From a virus (lineage: Duplodnaviria; Heunggongvirae; Uroviricota; Caudoviricetes), in IMG/VR virus record IMGVR_UViG_3300046513_000108, positions 26,391 through 90,390 of that record: 64,000 nt of DNA, one strand, 5' to 3'. A program made the translations under genes and the position numbers. The notes beneath the pieces are model-generated. The model was given only the letters and a program-made list of their open reading frames with translations. It was not told the origin of the DNA and made no database searches. Each line of letters starts with the position of its first letter. Positions within the stretch are counted from its first letter, which is position 1. Positions 20,353 through 37,252 of the stretch are shown piece after piece.

Positions 20353-20428
20353 TGGAGCGGGCAACAGGAATCGAACCTGCGACGAACAGCTTGGAAGGCT
20401 GACACTCTACCTACTGAGTTATACCCGC
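20353..20428 (-). tRNA. tRNA-Gly (anticodon UCC)
   Basis: hand-folded cloverleaf GCGGGTA…TTCGATT…TGCCCGC-T-CCA; anticodon loop CTTCCAA; CCA is encoded. Confidence 0.85.
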
Positions 20429-20434
20429 GTTGTT

Positions 20435-20509
20435 TGGCTGTCTAGACTGGCATCGAACCAATAACCTAGTGATTAACAGTCACTTGCTCTACCATTGAGC
20501 TACTAGACA
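20435..20509 (-). tRNA. tRNA-Asn (anticodon GUU)
   Basis: cloverleaf with acceptor TGTCTAG/CTAGACA, anticodon loop CTGTTAA, discriminator G, encoded CCA. Confidence 0.85.
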
Positions 20510-20514
20510 ATGTT

Positions 20515-20590
20515 TGGTGCTACTTAGAGGATTCCAACCCCTGACATCTTCATTACAAGTGAAGCGCTCTAGCAACTGAGCTAAAGTAGC
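20515..20590 (-). tRNA. tRNA-Thr (anticodon UGU)
   Basis: acceptor GCTACTT/AAGTAGC, anticodon loop CTTGTAA, T-loop TTGGAAT, encoded CCA. Confidence 0.8.
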
Positions 20591-20591
20591 T

Positions 20592-20676
20592 TGGTGGGCG
20601 AGGAGGGATTCCAACCCTCAATCCTTTCGGCGCGTGATTTTAAGTCACGAGTGTATCGCAGTTCCACCACTCGCCC
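20592..20676 (-). tRNA. tRNA-Leu (anticodon UAA), class II with long variable arm
   Basis: 85 nt; acceptor GGGCGAG/CTCGCCC; anticodon loop CTTAAAA; variable arm forms a stem-loop; encoded CCA. Confidence 0.8.
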
Positions 20677-21150
20677 CTAATTTAATAATCCTCTGGATAG
20701 CTGACTATGGCAATTTGGACAAAGAAATCTTAGATTTTCCTCCCTATCGTCTAACCAATCTTCATTAATATGATCTACATCTAAAGTTAATGGAAAATCG
20801 TGCCACACAGGGATTTGAGAACACTTTTCACATTCGTGTTTTCTACCAATCTCAATTAAACACCTAGTCAATACACTACCTTTCTGTCTTAACCCACAGT
20901 CTCTTTTAATTAAGATTTCACTAAATTTTTTCTTTGAAAATTTCTTACCTTTATTCCACAATTGACCTGTGAAATGTTGTGTATCTAGACCTAGTTTTTT
21001 AATCCTTCTGCTATAGTGACTGTGAGAGCCACCTGTCTCTCTAATTCCTAAGTATCTAAGTACTCCTGCTATTGACTCACTATTCTCTACTGCAATAGTT
21101 AATTCTTCATCAGTTATCTTATTGTATTTTCTTTTCATACATTGAATCAT
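20677..21150 (-). CDS. HNH endonuclease
   Basis: C-x-x-C … DHIN … N … C-x-x-C-H HNH-type motif; start moved to MIQCMKRKY because the first 14 codons of the 171-aa track ORF overlap a tRNA gene. Confidence 0.75.
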   Translation of the reverse strand: MIQCMKRKYNKITDEELTIAVENSESIAGVLRYLGIRETGGSHSHYSRRIKKLGLDTQHFTGQLWNKGKKFSKKKFSEILIKRDCGLRQKGSVLTRCLIEIGRKHECEKCSQIPVWHDFPLTLDVDHINEDWLDDREENLRFLCPNCHSQLSRGLLN

Positions 21151-21158
21151 TTTTATTT

Positions 21159-21243
21159 TGGTAGGCTTACCGAGACTCCAACTCGGACGCATTTCTGCAC
21201 CGGAACCTAAATCCGGCGTGTCTAGCTATTCCACCATAAGCCC
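21159..21243 (-). tRNA. tRNA-Leu (anticodon UAG), class II; paralog of the Leu-UAA tRNA
   Basis: 85 nt; acceptor GGGCTTA/TAAGCCT with a G1-U72 wobble; D-arm nearly identical to the Leu-UAA tRNA (TGGTGGAA…CAC); anticodon stem CCGGA/TCCGG with loop TTTAGGT; variable stem-loop GCA-GAAA-TGC; T-arm CCGAG-TTGGAGT-CTCGG; A73 then CCA. Confidence 0.6.
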
Positions 21244-24115: not shown

Positions 24116-24177
24116 GTGCTTGCACTTTGTAGGATGTTGTGCTAAAGTAGCTTCATCAAATCATTTTGGAGAAACAA

Positions 24178-25467
24178 ATGGCTAAGGCTATCGTAGCAAA
24201 GGTAACGGCTGTGCAGGAGATTCCGGGTGCAGACAAGATTCATGTGGCTGTTGTTCTTGGTGAAAACTGTATTGTTAGTAAAGATGTTGGTGTTGGGTAT
24301 GTTGGTATCCTGTTCCCTGCTGACACTCAACTGTCTGAAGAATACTGCCGTGAGAACAACCTGTTCCGTCAAGCACTGAACAACAAAGACAACACCAAAA
24401 CTGGCTTCTTTGAAGAGAATCGCCGTGTTCGTGTTCAGCCATTTCTGAAGGTGAAGTCTCAGGCTTATTTCACTTCTCTTGAAAGCCTGTCTTACGTAGG
24501 TAATTACAATGAAGTGAGTGACATTGGATATAGCTTTGACACTGTAAATGGCAAACAAATCTGCCAGAAATACATCTCTAAAGCCACTCGTGAAGCTCTG
24601 GAACGTCAACCGAAGAAAAAGAAACGTCTGATTGATTTGCCATACTTTGAGAAACACGTAGACAGTGCTCAATTTAAGCACAATGCAGCTATGATTCCTG
24701 TAGGTGCTATGCTGTCTTTCACAGCAAAGATTCATGGTACTTCTCATCGTTCTGGCCTGACTAAAGTGGTGCATACACTGCCAAAATGGAAGCAGATTGT
24801 AAATAAAGTTTATCCGTTCTTCAAACAAGAAGAATGGAAGCACATTGTAGGCACTCGTAATGTCATCCTGACAGAAGGTAAAGAAGGCTTCCACGGCTCT
24901 GAGCAATTCCGCTTCGATGTTATGGAAATGCTGAAGCCCTTTATGACTGAGGGTATGACCATTTACGGGGAGATTGCTGGCTATGCGAATGGTAAGCCTA
25001 TTATGGCAACCCACTCTGGCAAATCAACCAAAGACAAAGCTTTCCAGAAGAAATATGGAGAGAACATTGTTTATAAGTATAACTGTGCAGAGCATGAGAA
25101 TTATTTCTTTGTTTATCGCATCACTCAACTGACACAAGACGGGAAGAACATTGATATGTCTCCTGCACAGATTCAACAGTGGTGTGAAGAACGTGGATTG
25201 AATGCCCCTCTGCATGTTGCTGAATCTGAAATTTATGATGGGGATTTGGATAAGCTGCTGGCAAAGGTAGAAGCACTCACTGAACGTCCTGATGTACTTG
25301 GTGCAGACTATCTTGATCCATCTCATCCGGGGGAAGGTATTATTGTTCGTGTAGATACGGGGAAACAAAATCCGTATTTCCTGAAATCGAAGGCTTACTT
25401 CTTCAGGTGCATGGAAGGTCTTGCAGAGGCAGCAGATATGGAAGATTTGGAAGCAATTTCTGAATGA
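24178..25467 (+). CDS. RNA ligase: N-terminal tRNA-binding OB (Trbp111/EMAP-like) domain fused to an Rnl2/Rnl5-type nucleotidyltransferase
   Basis: N-terminus AIVAKVTAVQEIPGADKIHVAVVLGENCIVS resembles the tRNA_bind signature; ligase motif I is KIHGTS (T4 Rnl2 has KIHGTN), motif IV is EGIIVRV, motif V is LKSK. Confidence 0.7.
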   Translation: MAKAIVAKVTAVQEIPGADKIHVAVVLGENCIVSKDVGVGYVGILFPADTQLSEEYCRENNLFRQALNNKDNTKTGFFEENRRVRVQPFLKVKSQAYFTSLESLSYVGNYNEVSDIGYSFDTVNGKQICQKYISKATREALERQPKKKKRLIDLPYFEKHVDSAQFKHNAAMIPVGAMLSFTAKIHGTSHRSGLTKVVHTLPKWKQIVNKVYPFFKQEEWKHIVGTRNVILTEGKEGFHGSEQFRFDVMEMLKPFMTEGMTIYGEIAGYANGKPIMATHSGKSTKDKAFQKKYGENIVYKYNCAEHENYFFVYRITQLTQDGKNIDMSPAQIQQWCEERGLNAPLHVAESEIYDGDLDKLLAKVEALTERPDVLGADYLDPSHPGEGIIVRVDTGKQNPYFLKSKAYFFRCMEGLAEAADMEDLEAISE

Positions 25468-28033: not shown

Positions 28034-28063
28034 GAGGGAACCTTTGTGTTCCCTCTTTCTATT
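28034..28063 (+). terminator. hairpin GAGGGAAC-N6-GTTCCCTC with a U-tract; leader attenuator or terminator of the upstream unit
   Basis: perfect 8-bp stem followed by TTTCTATT; sits inside the ORF-track start of the HNH ORF. Confidence 0.4.
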
Positions 28064-28073
28064 GGAGAATACA

Positions 28074-29273
28074 TTGAATCAAGAGAATTATAGGCCACGT
28101 AAATACGTTTTTGAAGTAGGTCAAATATACCCCACAAATCATTGGGGTGAAGTAGAAGTGCTAGATGTTGTAAACTCAAACAATATCAGAATTAAATTTT
28201 TAAATACAGGTAACACCAAATCTTGTCGTAGCTCAGACCTTTCTGCTGGTAATGTCAGAGATGACAAGCTGTACAAGAAACAAGGCAATCCTTCCTCTAT
28301 CCCCTCTCCAGCTAAAGATAAATCATTCATACATGCTGGCACAGTGTTTCTAACAAACTTATATGGAGAGGTTGTAGTTGTAGAGTATGTCAATGGTAAA
28401 AATATTATTATCAAATTTACCAACACAGGTAACATTCAAACAGTTCAAAAAGATGCTTTAAAGAAGGGGCTTGTTCATGATATCAAAGAACGAAATAGGA
28501 TATCTAAGGAGAAAGAAAAACAAAGAAAGCTTTCCTTAAAATTACAAAAGGAAGAAAAGAAGAAAAACACATTAAGAAAGAGGCAGGAAAAGAAAGAGGC
28601 AAAGAAAGCTGAAGCTGTGCAAAAGAGGGCGGAAAAGAGAAAACTTAAAGATGAGGAACTGCTGTCTGTTGTTGGACTAGAGTTTTCTGATAAGTTAGAA
28701 ATGAAATTTTCTATTGTTTCAAGAGATTTGGAGACAGAACTATGCACCATCCGATATGAAGAATCTGGAAACGAGTATGAATTTACGTTCAAAAATATTG
28801 TTGGTGGGCAGTATGACGTATATGATAGGGGTAGTTCTGACTTTGAAAAGAAGTATAAACAATATTCTAAAACACGCTCTGTGAATTGGTACGAAGAGAA
28901 TAGAGAAAGACTTCTAGAAAAAGCTCTTAAGTACCAAAAGGACAATCCTGATAAAGCAAATCATTACAACCGAATCCGTCGAGGTAAGCGTAAAAATACC
29001 GAAGGAACTCACACACAAGAAGAAGTGATTGAATTGCTAGTACAACAAGATAACAAGTGTGCTTGTTGCAACACTTCATTTTTGACAGTGAAAAAACATC
29101 TTGACCACATTCATCCAATCAATCTTGGTGGCAGCAACTGGATTACTAATCTTCAATGGTTGTGTGACTTCTGCAATCTTGTTAAAAATGATTCCCACCC
29201 TGATGTGTGGTTAGAATATAGTCAGTCTGAGGAATTCAAAGAGAGGCGCATGAAAAGACTCTTGACAGTATAA
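28074..29273 (+). CDS. HNH homing-endonuclease-like protein with duplicated N-terminal module
   Basis: C-terminal CACCN…HLDHIHPINLGG…NLQWLCDFCN HNH motif; two N-terminal repeats (YGEVxV…I(R/I)IKF(L/T)NTGN); Lys/Glu-rich linker; TTG start with GGAG RBS chosen because the upstream hairpin overlaps the track start. Confidence 0.65.
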   Translation: MNQENYRPRKYVFEVGQIYPTNHWGEVEVLDVVNSNNIRIKFLNTGNTKSCRSSDLSAGNVRDDKLYKKQGNPSSIPSPAKDKSFIHAGTVFLTNLYGEVVVVEYVNGKNIIIKFTNTGNIQTVQKDALKKGLVHDIKERNRISKEKEKQRKLSLKLQKEEKKKNTLRKRQEKKEAKKAEAVQKRAEKRKLKDEELLSVVGLEFSDKLEMKFSIVSRDLETELCTIRYEESGNEYEFTFKNIVGGQYDVYDRGSSDFEKKYKQYSKTRSVNWYEENRERLLEKALKYQKDNPDKANHYNRIRRGKRKNTEGTHTQEEVIELLVQQDNKCACCNTSFLTVKKHLDHIHPINLGGSNWITNLQWLCDFCNLVKNDSHPDVWLEYSQSEEFKERRMKRLLTV

Positions 29274-29980: not shown

Positions 29981-29997
29981 CTTAAATTTGTTGTGCA

Positions 29998-30033
29998 AAA
30001 GCCCTTTGGAGAAATCTGAGGGGCTTTTTATTT
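29998..30033 (+). terminator. rho-independent terminator
   Basis: GCCC…GGGGCTTTTTATTTGTGCT; the 3' half is identical to the terminator at 24082. Confidence 0.55.
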
Positions 30034-30371
30034 GTGCTAAATTTTTTATAAAATTTTTTAGAAATCAAGCTATTTCATATAGTGAAAATATCTGTTGTAG
30101 AAATATTTTGTGTTGTTGGTGTGCAACATTTTTTCAGAGTTTTGTGGAAAATGCTCACAGATACGGGAGGGATTTAACAGGATACTTCATTTATGTATTG
30201 TACATTTCTAGCTTTTATAAAATATCAATAGACGTTCAACGATACCCGCTCCAAAGTCCTTCAGAACGCGTCAGATCAACCTGTATTCAACGATCGTTTA
30301 CGCTTCCTTATCACCCTACATGGCCACAACAGAATGCCCCTTAAGCTCTTGATTTCAAATGAGTAAATAAT

Positions 30372-30387
30372 CTAAACGGGCGTTTAG
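30372..30387. promoter_or_regulatory. 16-bp perfect palindrome CTAAACG-GG-CGTTTAG; candidate recombinase or regulator binding site
   Basis: the same 8-mer TCTAAACG recurs at 29276 (forward) and 30563 (reverse). Confidence 0.3.
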
Positions 30388-30732
30388 TTCTTATTCGGTT
30401 AATGGATTCCCTGTGGATAACTGGCCTATCAACCTGATCCTAAAGACCTCTATAGATATAAGCACCTGTAGCTGCGAGGAATGTTGCTTTGGGGACACTA
30501 TGTGTTGATTATTTGCAATAGTGTTGCATAGAAGTAACATTTGGCTGTAACTGTTAAAGAGTCGTTTAGACTGTTACTTATATCCGGTGCCTCTAGCAAG
30601 AAGGAGGTGCAAGTGTTTAATATATAGGTCTTTCCCGATACACACTACATCTAGTTGTTATAGAGAAATGTTGCCTAAATGTAGTAGATACACTATATAA
30701 GCGTACTAGATAGGTTAGTGTGAACAGTATTG

Positions 30733-30773
30733 CACAAAAGAAAAGGGGCATTCCCCGTTAAGAGATATGCCCC
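30733..30773 (-). terminator. rho-independent terminator ending the long minus-strand early unit
   Basis: minus strand GGGGCAT-N15-ATGCCCC followed by TTTTCTTTTG. Confidence 0.5.
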
Positions 30774-30915
30774 TGATAGTGAATCATGCATCTTTTAGCC
30801 AGAACTCGGCATATGTTACAGGGATAAAGCCTATCCTCATGCACCATGCTTTATACGCCATATACACCATAAACTTTTTAGTATTCATAATAAATCCCCC
30901 TTTTAATAATAACAT

Positions 30916-35123: not shown

Positions 35124-35348
35124 TTATTCTTCGGGGAAAGCATCAACCAAAGAATCTTTTGCTGATTCTAGGCTGTCTTTCGAGGATTCAAGGTTGCTAA
35201 TCTTTTCGTATAGCGCCGTCCCCTTGTCGGATTCTTGCCTTGTTTCACTCATGTTATCGTAACGCTCCTGAAGCTTCTCAATTTCAGCTTCCAGCTTTTC
35301 AATAACATCCTCGAAATGTCCAATTTGTTTCTTGAGAAATGCTGTCAT
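35124..35348 (-). CDS. coiled-coil protein
   Basis: 74 aa. Confidence 0.5.
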   Translation of the reverse strand: MTAFLKKQIGHFEDVIEKLEAEIEKLQERYDNMSETRQESDKGTALYEKISNLESSKDSLESAKDSLVDAFPEE

Positions 35349-35424
35349 TTTTGCTTCTCCTTCAGGTTAATAAATTCGGGAACACTCACGTTCAAATGTT
35401 CCCTAGGTTTATTCCCTGCTAGCG

Positions 35425-36082
35425 ATTCATCCCGAATGGCTAGTGTAGTGGGCGCTTATGTCATCCCGACATTAGACGTTTTCCCAAGTAGTGTTTTTTC
35501 CGTCTAGCATCTTAGACGTTTGGCGCTCCCCTTGTTTGTACTGTCATCCCGACAGGGCTACTAAAGGATCAAAGCGGTTTTTGCTCAGTTAGATAGAAGG
35601 AGGATTTAGGGCTGGTAACAAACAACATTAGCGCCATGTCTACTCTACTTCTACTCGTAACCTTGGGGTTTCTTCTGCCCCGCACTACAAAACATCTACT
35701 ACAGGACGAATATTAACCTGTACTACTGTTATGCGCAATACCCTACACAAGAAATTTTCAAATTATTTTTATTGTGTCTCTCTTTGTCCCTCGCGCCTTG
35801 CCTGTACAAGACAGCGCGCCCGCACGCGTAGCAATATCCGTGCCAGCCTGATTTATTGACACTGTATGAAAATACAGCAAAACGCGATAGAGGCGTTTTT
35901 TAGGTATGGTTGATACCGTGCCATACCCTGCTGTGGATAACCTCCTGTATCCCCCTTAAAACGCGTCCTATTGGATGCCATTGTGGATAACTTCAGAGGA
36001 AAAATGAGTGTTTTTGAACGTTTTATGTAAATGCCTCTGTATGTCTCATGTAAATTTACATGAAATTTTATGGTTATCCACA
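35425..36082. promoter_or_regulatory. regulatory hub or candidate origin: three DnaA boxes (35932-35940, 35982-35990, 36074-36082), three ATCCC-loop mini-hairpins (35425-35437, 35459-35471, 35542-35554), a GGTATGG/CCATACC inverted repeat and a CATGTAAATTTACATG palindrome (36046-36061)
   Basis: direct reading of an 860-bp non-coding gap. Confidence 0.4.
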
Positions 36083-36212
36083 GGCTGAAATGAGGAGGAA
36101 ATGGGGGAATGTGCTTAGGAATCAATGGGTTAAGTCTTATACATCTATACTGGTAAGACATGTATAAGATAGAGGAGTGGTCATATAGAGGACATGGACA
36201 AAATGATAATTT

Positions 36213-36773
36213 TTAGTCTGTACGCTTTACTTCATATTTCAACAAAGCTATTACCGCTCGTTCATCAATCTTTCCTTTGTACAATATTGCTAGATATTTA
36301 ATGTAACGTTCTTTCTCTTGTTTGTAAGCATTGAATGCATCTTCGATTGTTGCGAAACTTTCAGCATACCTTGAATGTTCATTATTACACTGTGCAAGGT
36401 AGGGTTTAGACTTGCTACAGACCCTAGTAACCCCAATAGGTAAATCTCCCCGACAAGATGAACGCTTATTGAGTACTTGATTAATCTTACGAGGCAGGAA
36501 CAGGCAAGTATCAGGCCCGTAACACTGGTTCCCATTTACTAACAAGTCTTTATCTAACTGGTAATCGTCTAGAGAAAAACCTATTTGTGAGTTACACCAA
36601 TCCACAAAGAAATCAAAATTTTTAAATTCTTCTGCCATATAACAACCCTTATATGTTGTTAATCTCTCCTGATGTTTCTCTGAACAACGATCCCTCATAT
36701 TAGTCCAAAGCCTAAATTCTTTGGATTGCGGGCCTGTGAAACTACGGGAATATTTACCTTTTCTTTTACTCAC
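36213..36773 (-). CDS. homing-endonuclease-like protein
   Basis: 186 aa with N-terminal GKYSRSFTGPQSKEFRLWTNMRDRC and YKGCYMAEEF; non-coding DNA on both sides. Confidence 0.35.
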   Translation of the reverse strand: MSKRKGKYSRSFTGPQSKEFRLWTNMRDRCSEKHQERLTTYKGCYMAEEFKNFDFFVDWCNSQIGFSLDDYQLDKDLLVNGNQCYGPDTCLFLPRKINQVLNKRSSCRGDLPIGVTRVCSKSKPYLAQCNNEHSRYAESFATIEDAFNAYKQEKERYIKYLAILYKGKIDERAVIALLKYEVKRTD

Positions 36774-37252
36774 TATTTAGTACTTTCTTTATCAATTGAA
36801 AGTACTACTTTAGCATGAGTGTTGCATTCTGTCAATATTTTGCTATCACACTGTTTCTTTGTTTGTCAAGAGATTTTAATAGGTATCCACCATACCTTAT
36901 CAGGGTATTAACAATACACCTAGGCAACACTTCGGAATAGGGGGAGAATAGGACAAGCTAGACAGGCTGTACAAATAGACAGCTAGAGAGACAGGATCGG
37001 AAAGCCCCAAATGGAAATGTTCAAAATGGAATAATACATTGTGGAACTGTCCACATATGAATCTCTGAAAGATGAATCTTTTAAAGATAAATCTTTCAGG
37101 AGTAAACCTTTTAGTTCATTCCTGAAATGCCACATTATTAGGCAGGAGAGGGGTGGAGGGATTCCCTTAGAAGCAAGGGAATTTTTCGGCAGGAATGGGG
37201 AAAATTCTTGAAATCAAAAATCCAATTCTCATTTGCAAACGTAGATAGTTTT

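Follow-up and report, generated by a model that had tools for sequence, protein, structure and literature searches.

The stretch of DNA analysed here (64,000 nucleotides, or nts; hereafter the window) is part of the IMG/VR virus record IMGVR_UViG_3300046513_000108 and comes from an uncultured tailed phage. Our subject is a non-coding hub in this window that brings together three DnaA boxes, a sigma-54-type promoter element, a sigma-70 promoter and a structured leader RNA. The window has a guanine plus cytosine (GC) content of 41%. Among its products are a large terminase, a Mu-type portal and an E-type capsid protein, whose identity to the counterparts in Pakpunavirus-like phages does not exceed 39%. 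Between about 54 kb and 30.9 kb every gene is small, lies on the minus strand and lacks a family assignment, a block that resembles a typical early region. A first-pass annotation of the sequence had singled out the gap flanked by the minus-strand genes 36213-36773 and 35124-35348 as a candidate origin or DnaA-controlled early promoter region. The elements it listed there are all present, at or within 1-2 nts of where it placed them, and they are more than chance gives. It missed the two promoters of the hub (P2 and P3 below), the insertion of an HNH gene, and the pairing of boxes with a sigma-54-type motif in T5-like vibriophages. The hub also exceeds the extent given there: it spans from about 37252 to 35349, split by the inserted HNH gene. 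For the 864-nt region of the gap, a comparison with the DNA of cultured phages gives zero matches. The boxes, the conserved blocks next to them and the promoters are as follows.

36074-36082, plus strand: DnaA box 3, TTATCCACA, inverted relative to boxes 1 and 2; extended match GGTTATCCACAG
35982-35990, minus strand: DnaA box 2, AGTTATCCACAA, invariant in all six aligned sequences
35951-35965, minus strand: conserved block CGCGTTTTAAGGGGG between boxes 2 and 1
35932-35940, minus strand: DnaA box 1, GGTTATCCACAG, ending 87 nts upstream of the sigma-54-type element
35908-35916, minus strand: GTATCAACC, a conserved ATATC(A/C)ACC block in the alignment
35821-35845, minus strand: P2, a -24/-12 element TGGCACGGATATTGC at 35845-35831 with a conserved extension TACGCGTGCG
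35710-35774, minus strand: P3, with a UP-like A/T tract (35774-35752), a -35 element TTGCGC (35738-35733), a 17-nt spacer and a -10 element TAATAT (35715-35710)

The three perfect DnaA boxes that the first-pass annotation reported at 35932, 35982 and 36074 are confirmed. The sequence TTATCCACA has 4 perfect copies in the 64 kb where 0.70 are expected, and three of the four are found within 151 bp of the hub, at spacings of 50 and 92 nts. The repeat unit of the boxes is truly 10-12 nts long, cTGTGGATAACc, and it includes a perfect 12-nt inverted pair. We take the flanks in cTGTGGATAACc to match those of the strongest E. coli boxes (R1/R4-like). Boxes were scored against the E. coli-type consensus, from which that of the host may differ; a widely distributed 667-amino-acid protein is uninformative as to which host this is. 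The DnaA consensus quoted in Davison's T5 preprint is TT(A/T)TNCACA, and the T5 variant boxes given there include TTATCAACA. By analogy with these variants, the conserved block GTATCAACC is a possible low-affinity DnaA site.

Relatives of the hub were reached by several routes. The closest, L001 (IMGVR_UViG_3300048090_000069), was reached via a neighbouring DUF932 gene; it is 97% identical to the window from 36084 to the start codon at 35348, with the genes swapped on both sides. L133 and L155 (about 90 kb each) were retrieved with the three-box DnaA pattern; their hubs are 71-76% identical to that of the window, and their flanking proteins are almost without detectable similarity. Because these two were chosen through the boxes, the search was repeated with box-free patterns. 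The extended promoter motif described below retrieves L184 and L175, and the pattern CGCGTTTTNAGGGG...TGGCACG-N4-TTGC retrieves L208 and L207, the latter a longer copy of the L133 contig; the block CGCGTTTTAAGGGGG served as the box-free search anchor. Some flanking proteins are common to the L184, L175, L208, L207, L133 and L155 contigs, and together the relatives constitute a single phage group, in which four to five lineages can be told apart. A metagenome scan anchored on the DUF932 neighbour found nothing, and the hub is absent next to DUF932 homologues at 60-71% identity (L123-L127). The IMG/VR pattern CGGGATG...CGGGATG...CGGGATG was discarded as too unspecific, as it matches at least 119 stretches with no relatives among the matches listed.

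The box-free relatives allow the boxes to be compared with their surroundings. In L184 and L208, 26 of the 27 box positions are as in the window; for 257 other aligned positions upstream the agreement is 57-58%. Both box changes sit at the N of TTATNCACA: box 1 reads TTATACACA in L184 and TTATTCACA in L208, only the degenerate N being altered, so that each has a one-mismatch equivalent of box 1 at the aligned position. Box 3 is perfect in L001, L207, L155, L184 and L208, and L175 has three boxes whose order is changed. The start of box 1 is 95-96 nts from the sigma-54-type element (its end 87-88 nts upstream) in the window, L001, L207 and L155. In every locus the perfect boxes are confined to non-coding hubs. 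This pattern of change in the alignment indicates that the boxes are under strong purifying selection as DnaA boxes.

The relatives carry a second cluster, with two to four perfect boxes, 700-880 nts upstream of P2. Found in L155 (about 2140-2300), L207, L208 and L184, it has several tandem boxes at 11-nt spacing, as in TGTGGATAAAA-TGTGGATAACC-TGTGGACAACC, and then five to seven copies of CGATAG / CTATCG, a layout of iterons plus DnaA boxes. The window and L001 are without this second cluster. In total, the relatives have 5-8 or more high-affinity boxes.

P2 is the only perfect sigma-54 -24/-12 match in the window, lies 87 nts downstream of box 1 and points in the same direction as the genes. 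Its core matches TGGCAC-N5-TTGC perfectly, GG and GC being spaced by exactly 10 nts, and TGGCACG-N4-TTGC is invariant in 7 sequences while the N4 is variable. The relatives have a second sigma-54-type copy, P1, about 410-420 nts upstream, and L208 has a third, in tandem. The extended motif TGGCACG-N4-TTGCTACGCGTG is found in 31 IMG/VR stretches with GC contents of 40-64%. With its downstream bases it reads TGGCAYG-N4-TTGCTACGCGTG(CGCG), and it can also be written TGGCAYG-N4-TTGCTACGCGTGCG or TGGCAYG-N4-TTGCTACGCG. In bacterial genomes it has 6 occurrences in 596 Gb, which is about chance; mimicry of a conserved host sigma-54 promoter is rejected on this ground, and the distribution indicates that the motif is virus-specific. 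Its placement fits a promoter: in L198 it lies 350 nts upstream of a gpA-type terminase gene, and in L186, L176 and L193 it directly follows a GapR-like gene, some 15-25 nts before a ribosome-binding site. Extra motif copies, tandem or inverted, occur in several of the IMG/VR loci L172-L199 and L208 (L183, L187, L188, L195, L208). Pseudomonas phage YuA is a reported case of a phage with sigma-54-type promoters; P2 shares with sigma-54 promoters, those of YuA included, the core, the spacing and the variable spacer, and differs from them by the conserved extension and the virus-specific distribution. The literature on RpoN and phage resistance describes indirect effects only. As a separate observation, a more distant DUF932 phage (L124, 5695-5972, minus strand) has a perfect sigma-54 consensus, TGGCACTACGTTTGC, together with an equally perfect TTGACA-17-TATAAT promoter. 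Both elements fall within a called 70-amino-acid 'gene' upstream of DUF932, and this region is probably non-coding or RNA-encoding.

P3 lies about 110 nts downstream of P2 and heads the minus-strand operon of small genes. It is retained in 7 of 7 sequences, with a -35 element TTGCRN, an upstream A/T-rich tract and a spacer of exactly 17 nts that has itself diverged. The -10 element takes the forms TAGAAT, TATAAT, CATAAT and TAATAT. Transcription from P3 is predicted to start at about 35703, which would give the downstream operon the following 5' leader.

35349-35703, minus strand: structured 5' leader RNA of about 350 nts, recognised by fold z-score and covariation
35541-35555, minus strand: hairpin A, CUGUC-GGGAU-GACAG
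35472-35521, minus strand: two copies of AAACGUCUAA flanking UAGACG (35506-35501)
35458-35472, minus strand: hairpin B, AUGUC-GGGAU-GACAU, with UAGUC/GACUA at the aligned site of L155
35419-35443, minus strand: hairpin C, CUAGC-C-AUUC-GGGAU-GAAU-C-GCUAG
35369-35413, minus strand: long two-part hairpin of 7 + 10 bp, ending 5 nts before the ribosome-binding site

Folding is stronger for the minus strand of the leader (z-score -3.4) than for its plus strand (-2.4). The first-pass annotation had described three mini-hairpins with an ATCCC loop as part of a possible origin. The three 13-nt units are there (35426-35438, 35459-35471 and 35542-35554), but on the other strand, as RNA hairpins with a GGGAU loop and not as origin hairpins. 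For TCATCCCGA, 3 copies compare with 0.24 expected, and none of 100 shuffles reaches 3. In hairpin C a conserved C.C mismatch separates an outer stem of 5 bp from an inner one of 4 bp that co-varies, with the variants AUUC/GAAU, AAUC/GAUU, ACGC/GCGU and ACAU/AUGU. Conservation of the hairpins in relatives, which the first-pass annotation had proposed to check, holds: the stems co-vary across six lineages. Each of these lineages has 2-3 hairpins with sequence-unrelated stems of 4-5 bp, against a background of 0.1-0.16 per kb. The loops are GGGA, GGGAU, GGGAC or GUGAU. The 3' domain, formed by hairpin C and the two-part hairpin, has 26 pairs and is 92% paired. Double changes are seen in 11 of its pairs. 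Shuffles yield 4.3 +/- 1.5 such pairs, none of 500 attaining 11, and sliding the structure by 1-3 columns yields no more than 7. That the folded molecule is the minus-strand RNA follows from an invariant U.G pair, located in the two-part hairpin (helices 2 and 3), together with many other G.U pairs. The hairpin at 35403-35378 was considered as a simple terminator and rejected: its apparent U-tract is paired in the conserved outer helix. A covariance model of the 3' domain (R1) matches only within this phage group. Rfam gives no match in the window at gathering score, none in the hub at E <= 10, and nothing beyond one tRNA in 18 related loci.

Other leader elements are particular to the lineage of the window and L001. 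The two TTAGACGTTT repeats of the first-pass annotation, recovered by a repeat search at 35472 and 35512, are the two copies of AAACGUCUAA listed above, and the UAGACG between them could by complementarity pair with either copy; the whole feature is restricted to this lineage. The leader also contains three tandem AGTAGA units (35637-35655, minus strand; GAGTAGAAGTAGAGTAGA), again in this lineage only.

In their 4-5-bp stems, their GNRA-type tetra- or pentaloops and their location after an early promoter, the hairpins resemble those of lambda nut sites and of rrn leaders. The nut and rrn sites have one hairpin with a GAAAA or GACAA loop, whereas the hub has two to three with GGGA(U) loops, and we recognise no N-like arginine-rich protein. 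The hairpin C loop of L207 is GUGAU, which keeps the GNRA pattern and loses GGA, and the loops of L184 are closed GGGA tetraloops. Persistence of GNRA-type loops despite the loss of GGA argues for a boxB-like site of loop-specific recognition. A near-perfect rrn-type boxA (CGCTCTTTAACAA) lies downstream of P3 and upstream of the hairpins in L155, L184, L175, L207 and L208, while in the window and L001 boxA (GCTCTTTAACAA or CGCTCTTA) is absent, the best match in the hub having 4 mismatches. An antitermination role of the leader is therefore plausible for the group and unproven for this phage. The boxA of the relatives, like that of Vibrio phage Thalassa discussed below, suggests an rRNA-style antitermination of early or pre-early operons.

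The remaining features of the hub are listed here together with the genes that flank it.

36213-36773, minus strand: HNH homing-endonuclease gene, read from 36773 to 36213 (phrog_953, E = 8e-54)
36135-36169: TCTTATACAT / ATGTATAAGA, a remnant of operator-like palindromes
36021-36063: AT-rich spacer between boxes 3 and 2, with ATGTAAAT / ATTTACAT repeats and an 18-nt palindrome
35862-35900, minus strand: AAAACG..CGTTTT and CTGT..ACAG, a pair of small conserved hairpins separating the DnaA boxes from P2; the hairpin with a U-tract of the first-pass annotation belongs here
35788-35823, minus strand: GC-rich hairpin directly after P2
35124-35363, minus strand: first gene of the operon, a 74-amino-acid coiled-coil protein, with its ribosome-binding site at 35363-35354

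The HNH cassette (36213-36869) has its own promoter, TTGACA-17-TAAAGT at 36835-36807, and the gene is absent from L001 and the other relatives. Downstream of P1 the relatives have three to six 14-nt palindromes (G/C)TCTTATAYAAGA(G/C). Comparison with them indicates that the cassette is an insertion: it took the place of P1 and of the majority of the operator-like palindromes, and with these the upstream third of the ancestral hub was lost. The hub resumes upstream of the inserted gene (36774-37252). In this part a 15-nt unit, AAAGATTyATCTTTn, stands three times in tandem at 37095-37054 in the window and L001, and there are also CTGTCT repeats and a near-DnaA box, TGTGGACAG; the 50-amino-acid open reading frame at 36983-37135 is probably not a gene. 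In the spacer between boxes 3 and 2, GC falls to 0.32 over 36000-36099, the minimum of the hub per 100 nts (genome mean 0.41), and ATGTAAAT...GATTTACA is conserved. The palindrome there, TCATGTAAATTTACATGA, had been given as 16 bp; it is present but is 18 nts long (36046-36063), one base offset from the earlier placement, and it is not conserved. The GGTATGG/CCATACC inverted repeat at 35904-35927 is read directly in the sequence, and the plus-strand hairpin with a U-tract, AAAACGC...GCGTTTTTT, is also where it had been described, at 35879-35901. The GC-rich hairpin after P2 is followed by a U-run in the relatives, terminator-like, and not in the window. A 102-amino-acid open reading frame (35853-36161, minus strand), which the first-pass annotation had noted to lack a ribosome-binding site, indeed has no Shine-Dalgarno sequence. 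Its changes relative to L001 are mostly non-synonymous and its N-terminus has diverged; on both grounds we reject it as a gene. In L001, different genes stand in place of the 74-amino-acid coiled-coil gene.

We tentatively read the hub as the control region of the early operon, one that would recruit host DnaA, and we hold this at somewhat less than an even chance. The reading builds on the non-coding hub, the selected boxes with their fixed geometry to the promoter elements, and the co-varying leader; the conservation of a 97% identical hub between swapped genes in the window and L001 also counts for it. We infer that host DnaA would occupy the boxes on incoming phage DNA, and that DnaA and RNA polymerase at the sigma-54-type site would set whether and how strongly the operon fires, the direction of this effect being part of the proposal, as is the use of sigma-54 itself. 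Early expression would thereby be tied to host DnaA and to the growth state. The leader hairpins may be loop-specific recognition sites, lambda boxB-like or for RNA processing, at which a putative binding factor would condition expression of the downstream genes. Of the two halves of the first-pass proposal, the DnaA-controlled early promoter fits the hub, and the origin, which nothing specifically supports, is the less likely.

Several observations weigh against a control region that recruits DnaA. The 8-12 conserved bases after the -12 element (TACGCGTGCG) are atypical of sigma-54 promoters. Among the window proteins scanned, which come from a partial genome, there is no Sigma54_activat or enhancer-binding-protein gene. 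Conserved blocks lie 90-240 nts upstream of P2, none of which resembles an activator site known to us, and we know of no case in which DnaA activates a sigma-54 promoter. In the relatives, a transcript from a canonical sigma-54 start would include only part of the GC-rich hairpin and its U-run. Their 5-8 or more boxes exceed what simple promoter regulation needs. The lineage of the window has lost P1 and palindromes, so parts of the hub are dispensable, and its leader lacks the boxA that antitermination would call for. Known DnaA-regulated promoters (dnaA, nrd, lambda pR) have boxes at a defined distance from the promoter, as does the hub, and lambda pR is a phage promoter stimulated by DnaA. 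The hub boxes, at 90-240 nts upstream of P2 and 200-350 nts upstream of P3, are farther away and more numerous than in those cases.

A possible alternative, though on the unlikely side, is that the hub is a DnaA-dependent origin. DnaA would assemble on the boxes, opening would occur in the AT-rich spacer that separates boxes 3 and 2 or in a tract nearby, and transcription from the flanking promoters would activate or prime initiation, as in lambda ori and the T4/T7 origins. Like oriC, P1 oriR and iteron plasmids, the hub has a cluster of high-affinity boxes, conserved and with flanks that we take to be R1/R4-like, beside an AT-richer spacer. The second cluster of the relatives adds tandem boxes at 11 nts and iteron-like CGATAG repeats, the window and L001 have the three 15-nt tandem repeats upstream (37095-37054), and transcription would traverse a long non-coding stretch. 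The spacer, however, reaches only 68% AT, with no array of 13-mers and no DnaA-trio recognised by eye, and the boxes of the hub, unlike those of oriC-type origins, are embedded between promoters and have no recognisable unwinding element. Among the neighbouring window proteins we find no replication-related families and no recognisable initiator. GC skew, which the first-pass annotation had proposed as a check, tracks transcription: it is negative over 30-54 kb and has no inflection or switch at the hub. The iteron-like repeats vary by lineage, and the phage survived an HNH insertion that partly deleted the palindromes. GC is lower still (0.26) in another non-coding part of the window, 30030-30850, beside a perfect and a near-perfect box. 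Finally, the homologous combination in T5-like phages is in the terminal repeat, and T5 origins are at the genome centre (Davison's preprint).

These T5-like phages provide the closest parallel to the hub. The extended sigma-54-type motif matches about 30 cultured Thalassa-type T5-like vibriophages (Demerecviridae), for example NC_042095 (L206, 3501-3527). In Vibrio phage Thalassa it sits in the 975-nt untranslated region that separates the divergent pre-early operons, and precedes the A2-like, A1-like and dmp genes. This region includes three perfect boxes, with cCTGTGGATAACc flanks identical to those of the hub, and the sigma-54-like TTGGCATGGTTATTGCTACGCGTGCGC. Further elements there are an imperfect second copy of the sigma-54-like site, a sigma-70 promoter with consensus sequence, an rrn-type boxA CGCTCTTTAACAATTT (L206, about 3755) and a long hairpin before the first gene. 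Davison's preprint covers 25 T5-like phages, whose untranslated repeat regions are conserved and hold about 8 DnaA boxes of consensus or variant type, and it notes an HNH insertion in one of them. It argues that these regions are not origins, and proposes a DnaA-mediated stop of injection. The T5-like first-step-transfer regions and the hub are both long conserved non-coding stretches in the earliest-expressed part of a virulent phage. Both have repeats, palindromes and consensus as well as variant DnaA boxes, both are conserved above the neighbouring open reading frames, and both are sometimes interrupted by an HNH endonuclease gene. The T5 boxes come in pairs separated by 3 bp inside IRC/IRD inverted repeats with a 52-bp spacer, and the hub has neither such pairs nor such repeats. 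In T5 itself, where an HNH gene splits one of the untranslated repeat regions, the boxes are present and the sigma-54-like motif is not; the 64-kb window has no A1/A2 homologues, and by its terminase, portal and capsid proteins this phage is not T5-like. The function of the T5 boxes is itself a proposal.

The parallel brings in another explanation, in which the hub would be a landing pad that tethers or pauses the entering genome at membrane-bound DnaA, or that titrates DnaA in the manner of datA and so arrests initiation in the host. We consider it quite improbable, even though the T5-like untranslated regions have some 8 boxes, palindromes and even an HNH insertion, the Thalassa-type vibriophages have both the boxes and the sigma-54-like motif, and the 5-8 or more boxes of the relatives go beyond the need of one promoter. 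The T5 model is a hypothesis from a single preprint, the hallmarks of T5 (boxes 3 bp apart, IRC/IRD) and the A1/A2 homologues are absent from the window, and three boxes per genome copy would be a weak sink for DnaA.

That the 35349-35703 transcript is a stand-alone RNA sequestering a GGA-binding CsrA/RsmA protein, as CsrB and RsmZ do, we regard as very improbable and reject: each leader has several GGA-containing hairpin loops, L155 has about seven GGA(U/A)G motifs, and UUC-GGGAU-GAA is in our estimate similar to the RsmE target UUC-ACGGAU-GAA, but the GUGAU loop of L207 is without GGA and the GGGA tetraloops of L184 are closed, the RNA has only 2-3 sites and no Rfam family match even at E <= 10, and it has no terminator of its own, the transcript running into a ribosome-binding site and a gene.

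A broader proposal, which we regard as unlikely, can be attached to the hub. The box array and TGGCAYG-N4-TTGCTACGCGTGCG would together be a portable, virus-specific pad that loads DnaA and sigma-54 polymerase on incoming DNA. Unrelated virulent phages, the T5-like vibriophages and the new group of about 90 kb, would then have in common a pad that governs the first step of infection, be it pre-early transcription, DNA entry or initiation, and this would be an undescribed host-factor dependency of lytic phages. Why T5-type virulent phages keep DnaA-box arrays in the DNA that enters earliest has been an open question since the 1980s. The hub extends the theme to an unrelated uncultured phage group, with quantitative evidence of selection, and links the boxes to a sigma-54-type motif and to a leader RNA that co-varies. 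With its three boxes, its single -24/-12 element and its three hairpin loops, the hub offers small targets for asking whether lytic phages sense the replication initiator and the sigma-54 status of the host, and the cultured Thalassa-type vibriophages are a tractable system with the key elements.

The first-pass annotation had called the hub the most origin-like sequence in the window, a ranking that does not stand, as the region 30030-30850 is at least as origin-like. This is a second long non-coding region, where the minus- and plus-strand gene blocks converge. It has the fourth perfect box, with hub-type flanks (cCTGTGGATAACt, 30412-30420), and a consensus-type box TTTTCCACA at 30143-30151. 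The GC of 0.26 is that of 30000-30150, the most AT-rich tract seen in the window. Two boxA-like sequences lie on the minus strand at 30551-30562 and 30655-30666, a minus-strand terminator at about 30775-30735 and a bidirectional terminator at 29997-30028. In L184, a lone DnaA box is found about 6.2 kb downstream of the hub.

A further observation in the window, at 20353-21243 and 24166-25467, concerns a cluster of five tRNA genes (Gly, Asn, Thr, Leu, Leu; 20.3-21.2 kb). An RNA-ligase-family gene and a gene for an HNH endonuclease (28044-29273) stand within a few kb of it, and these genes together are a possible tRNA-repair counter-defence module.

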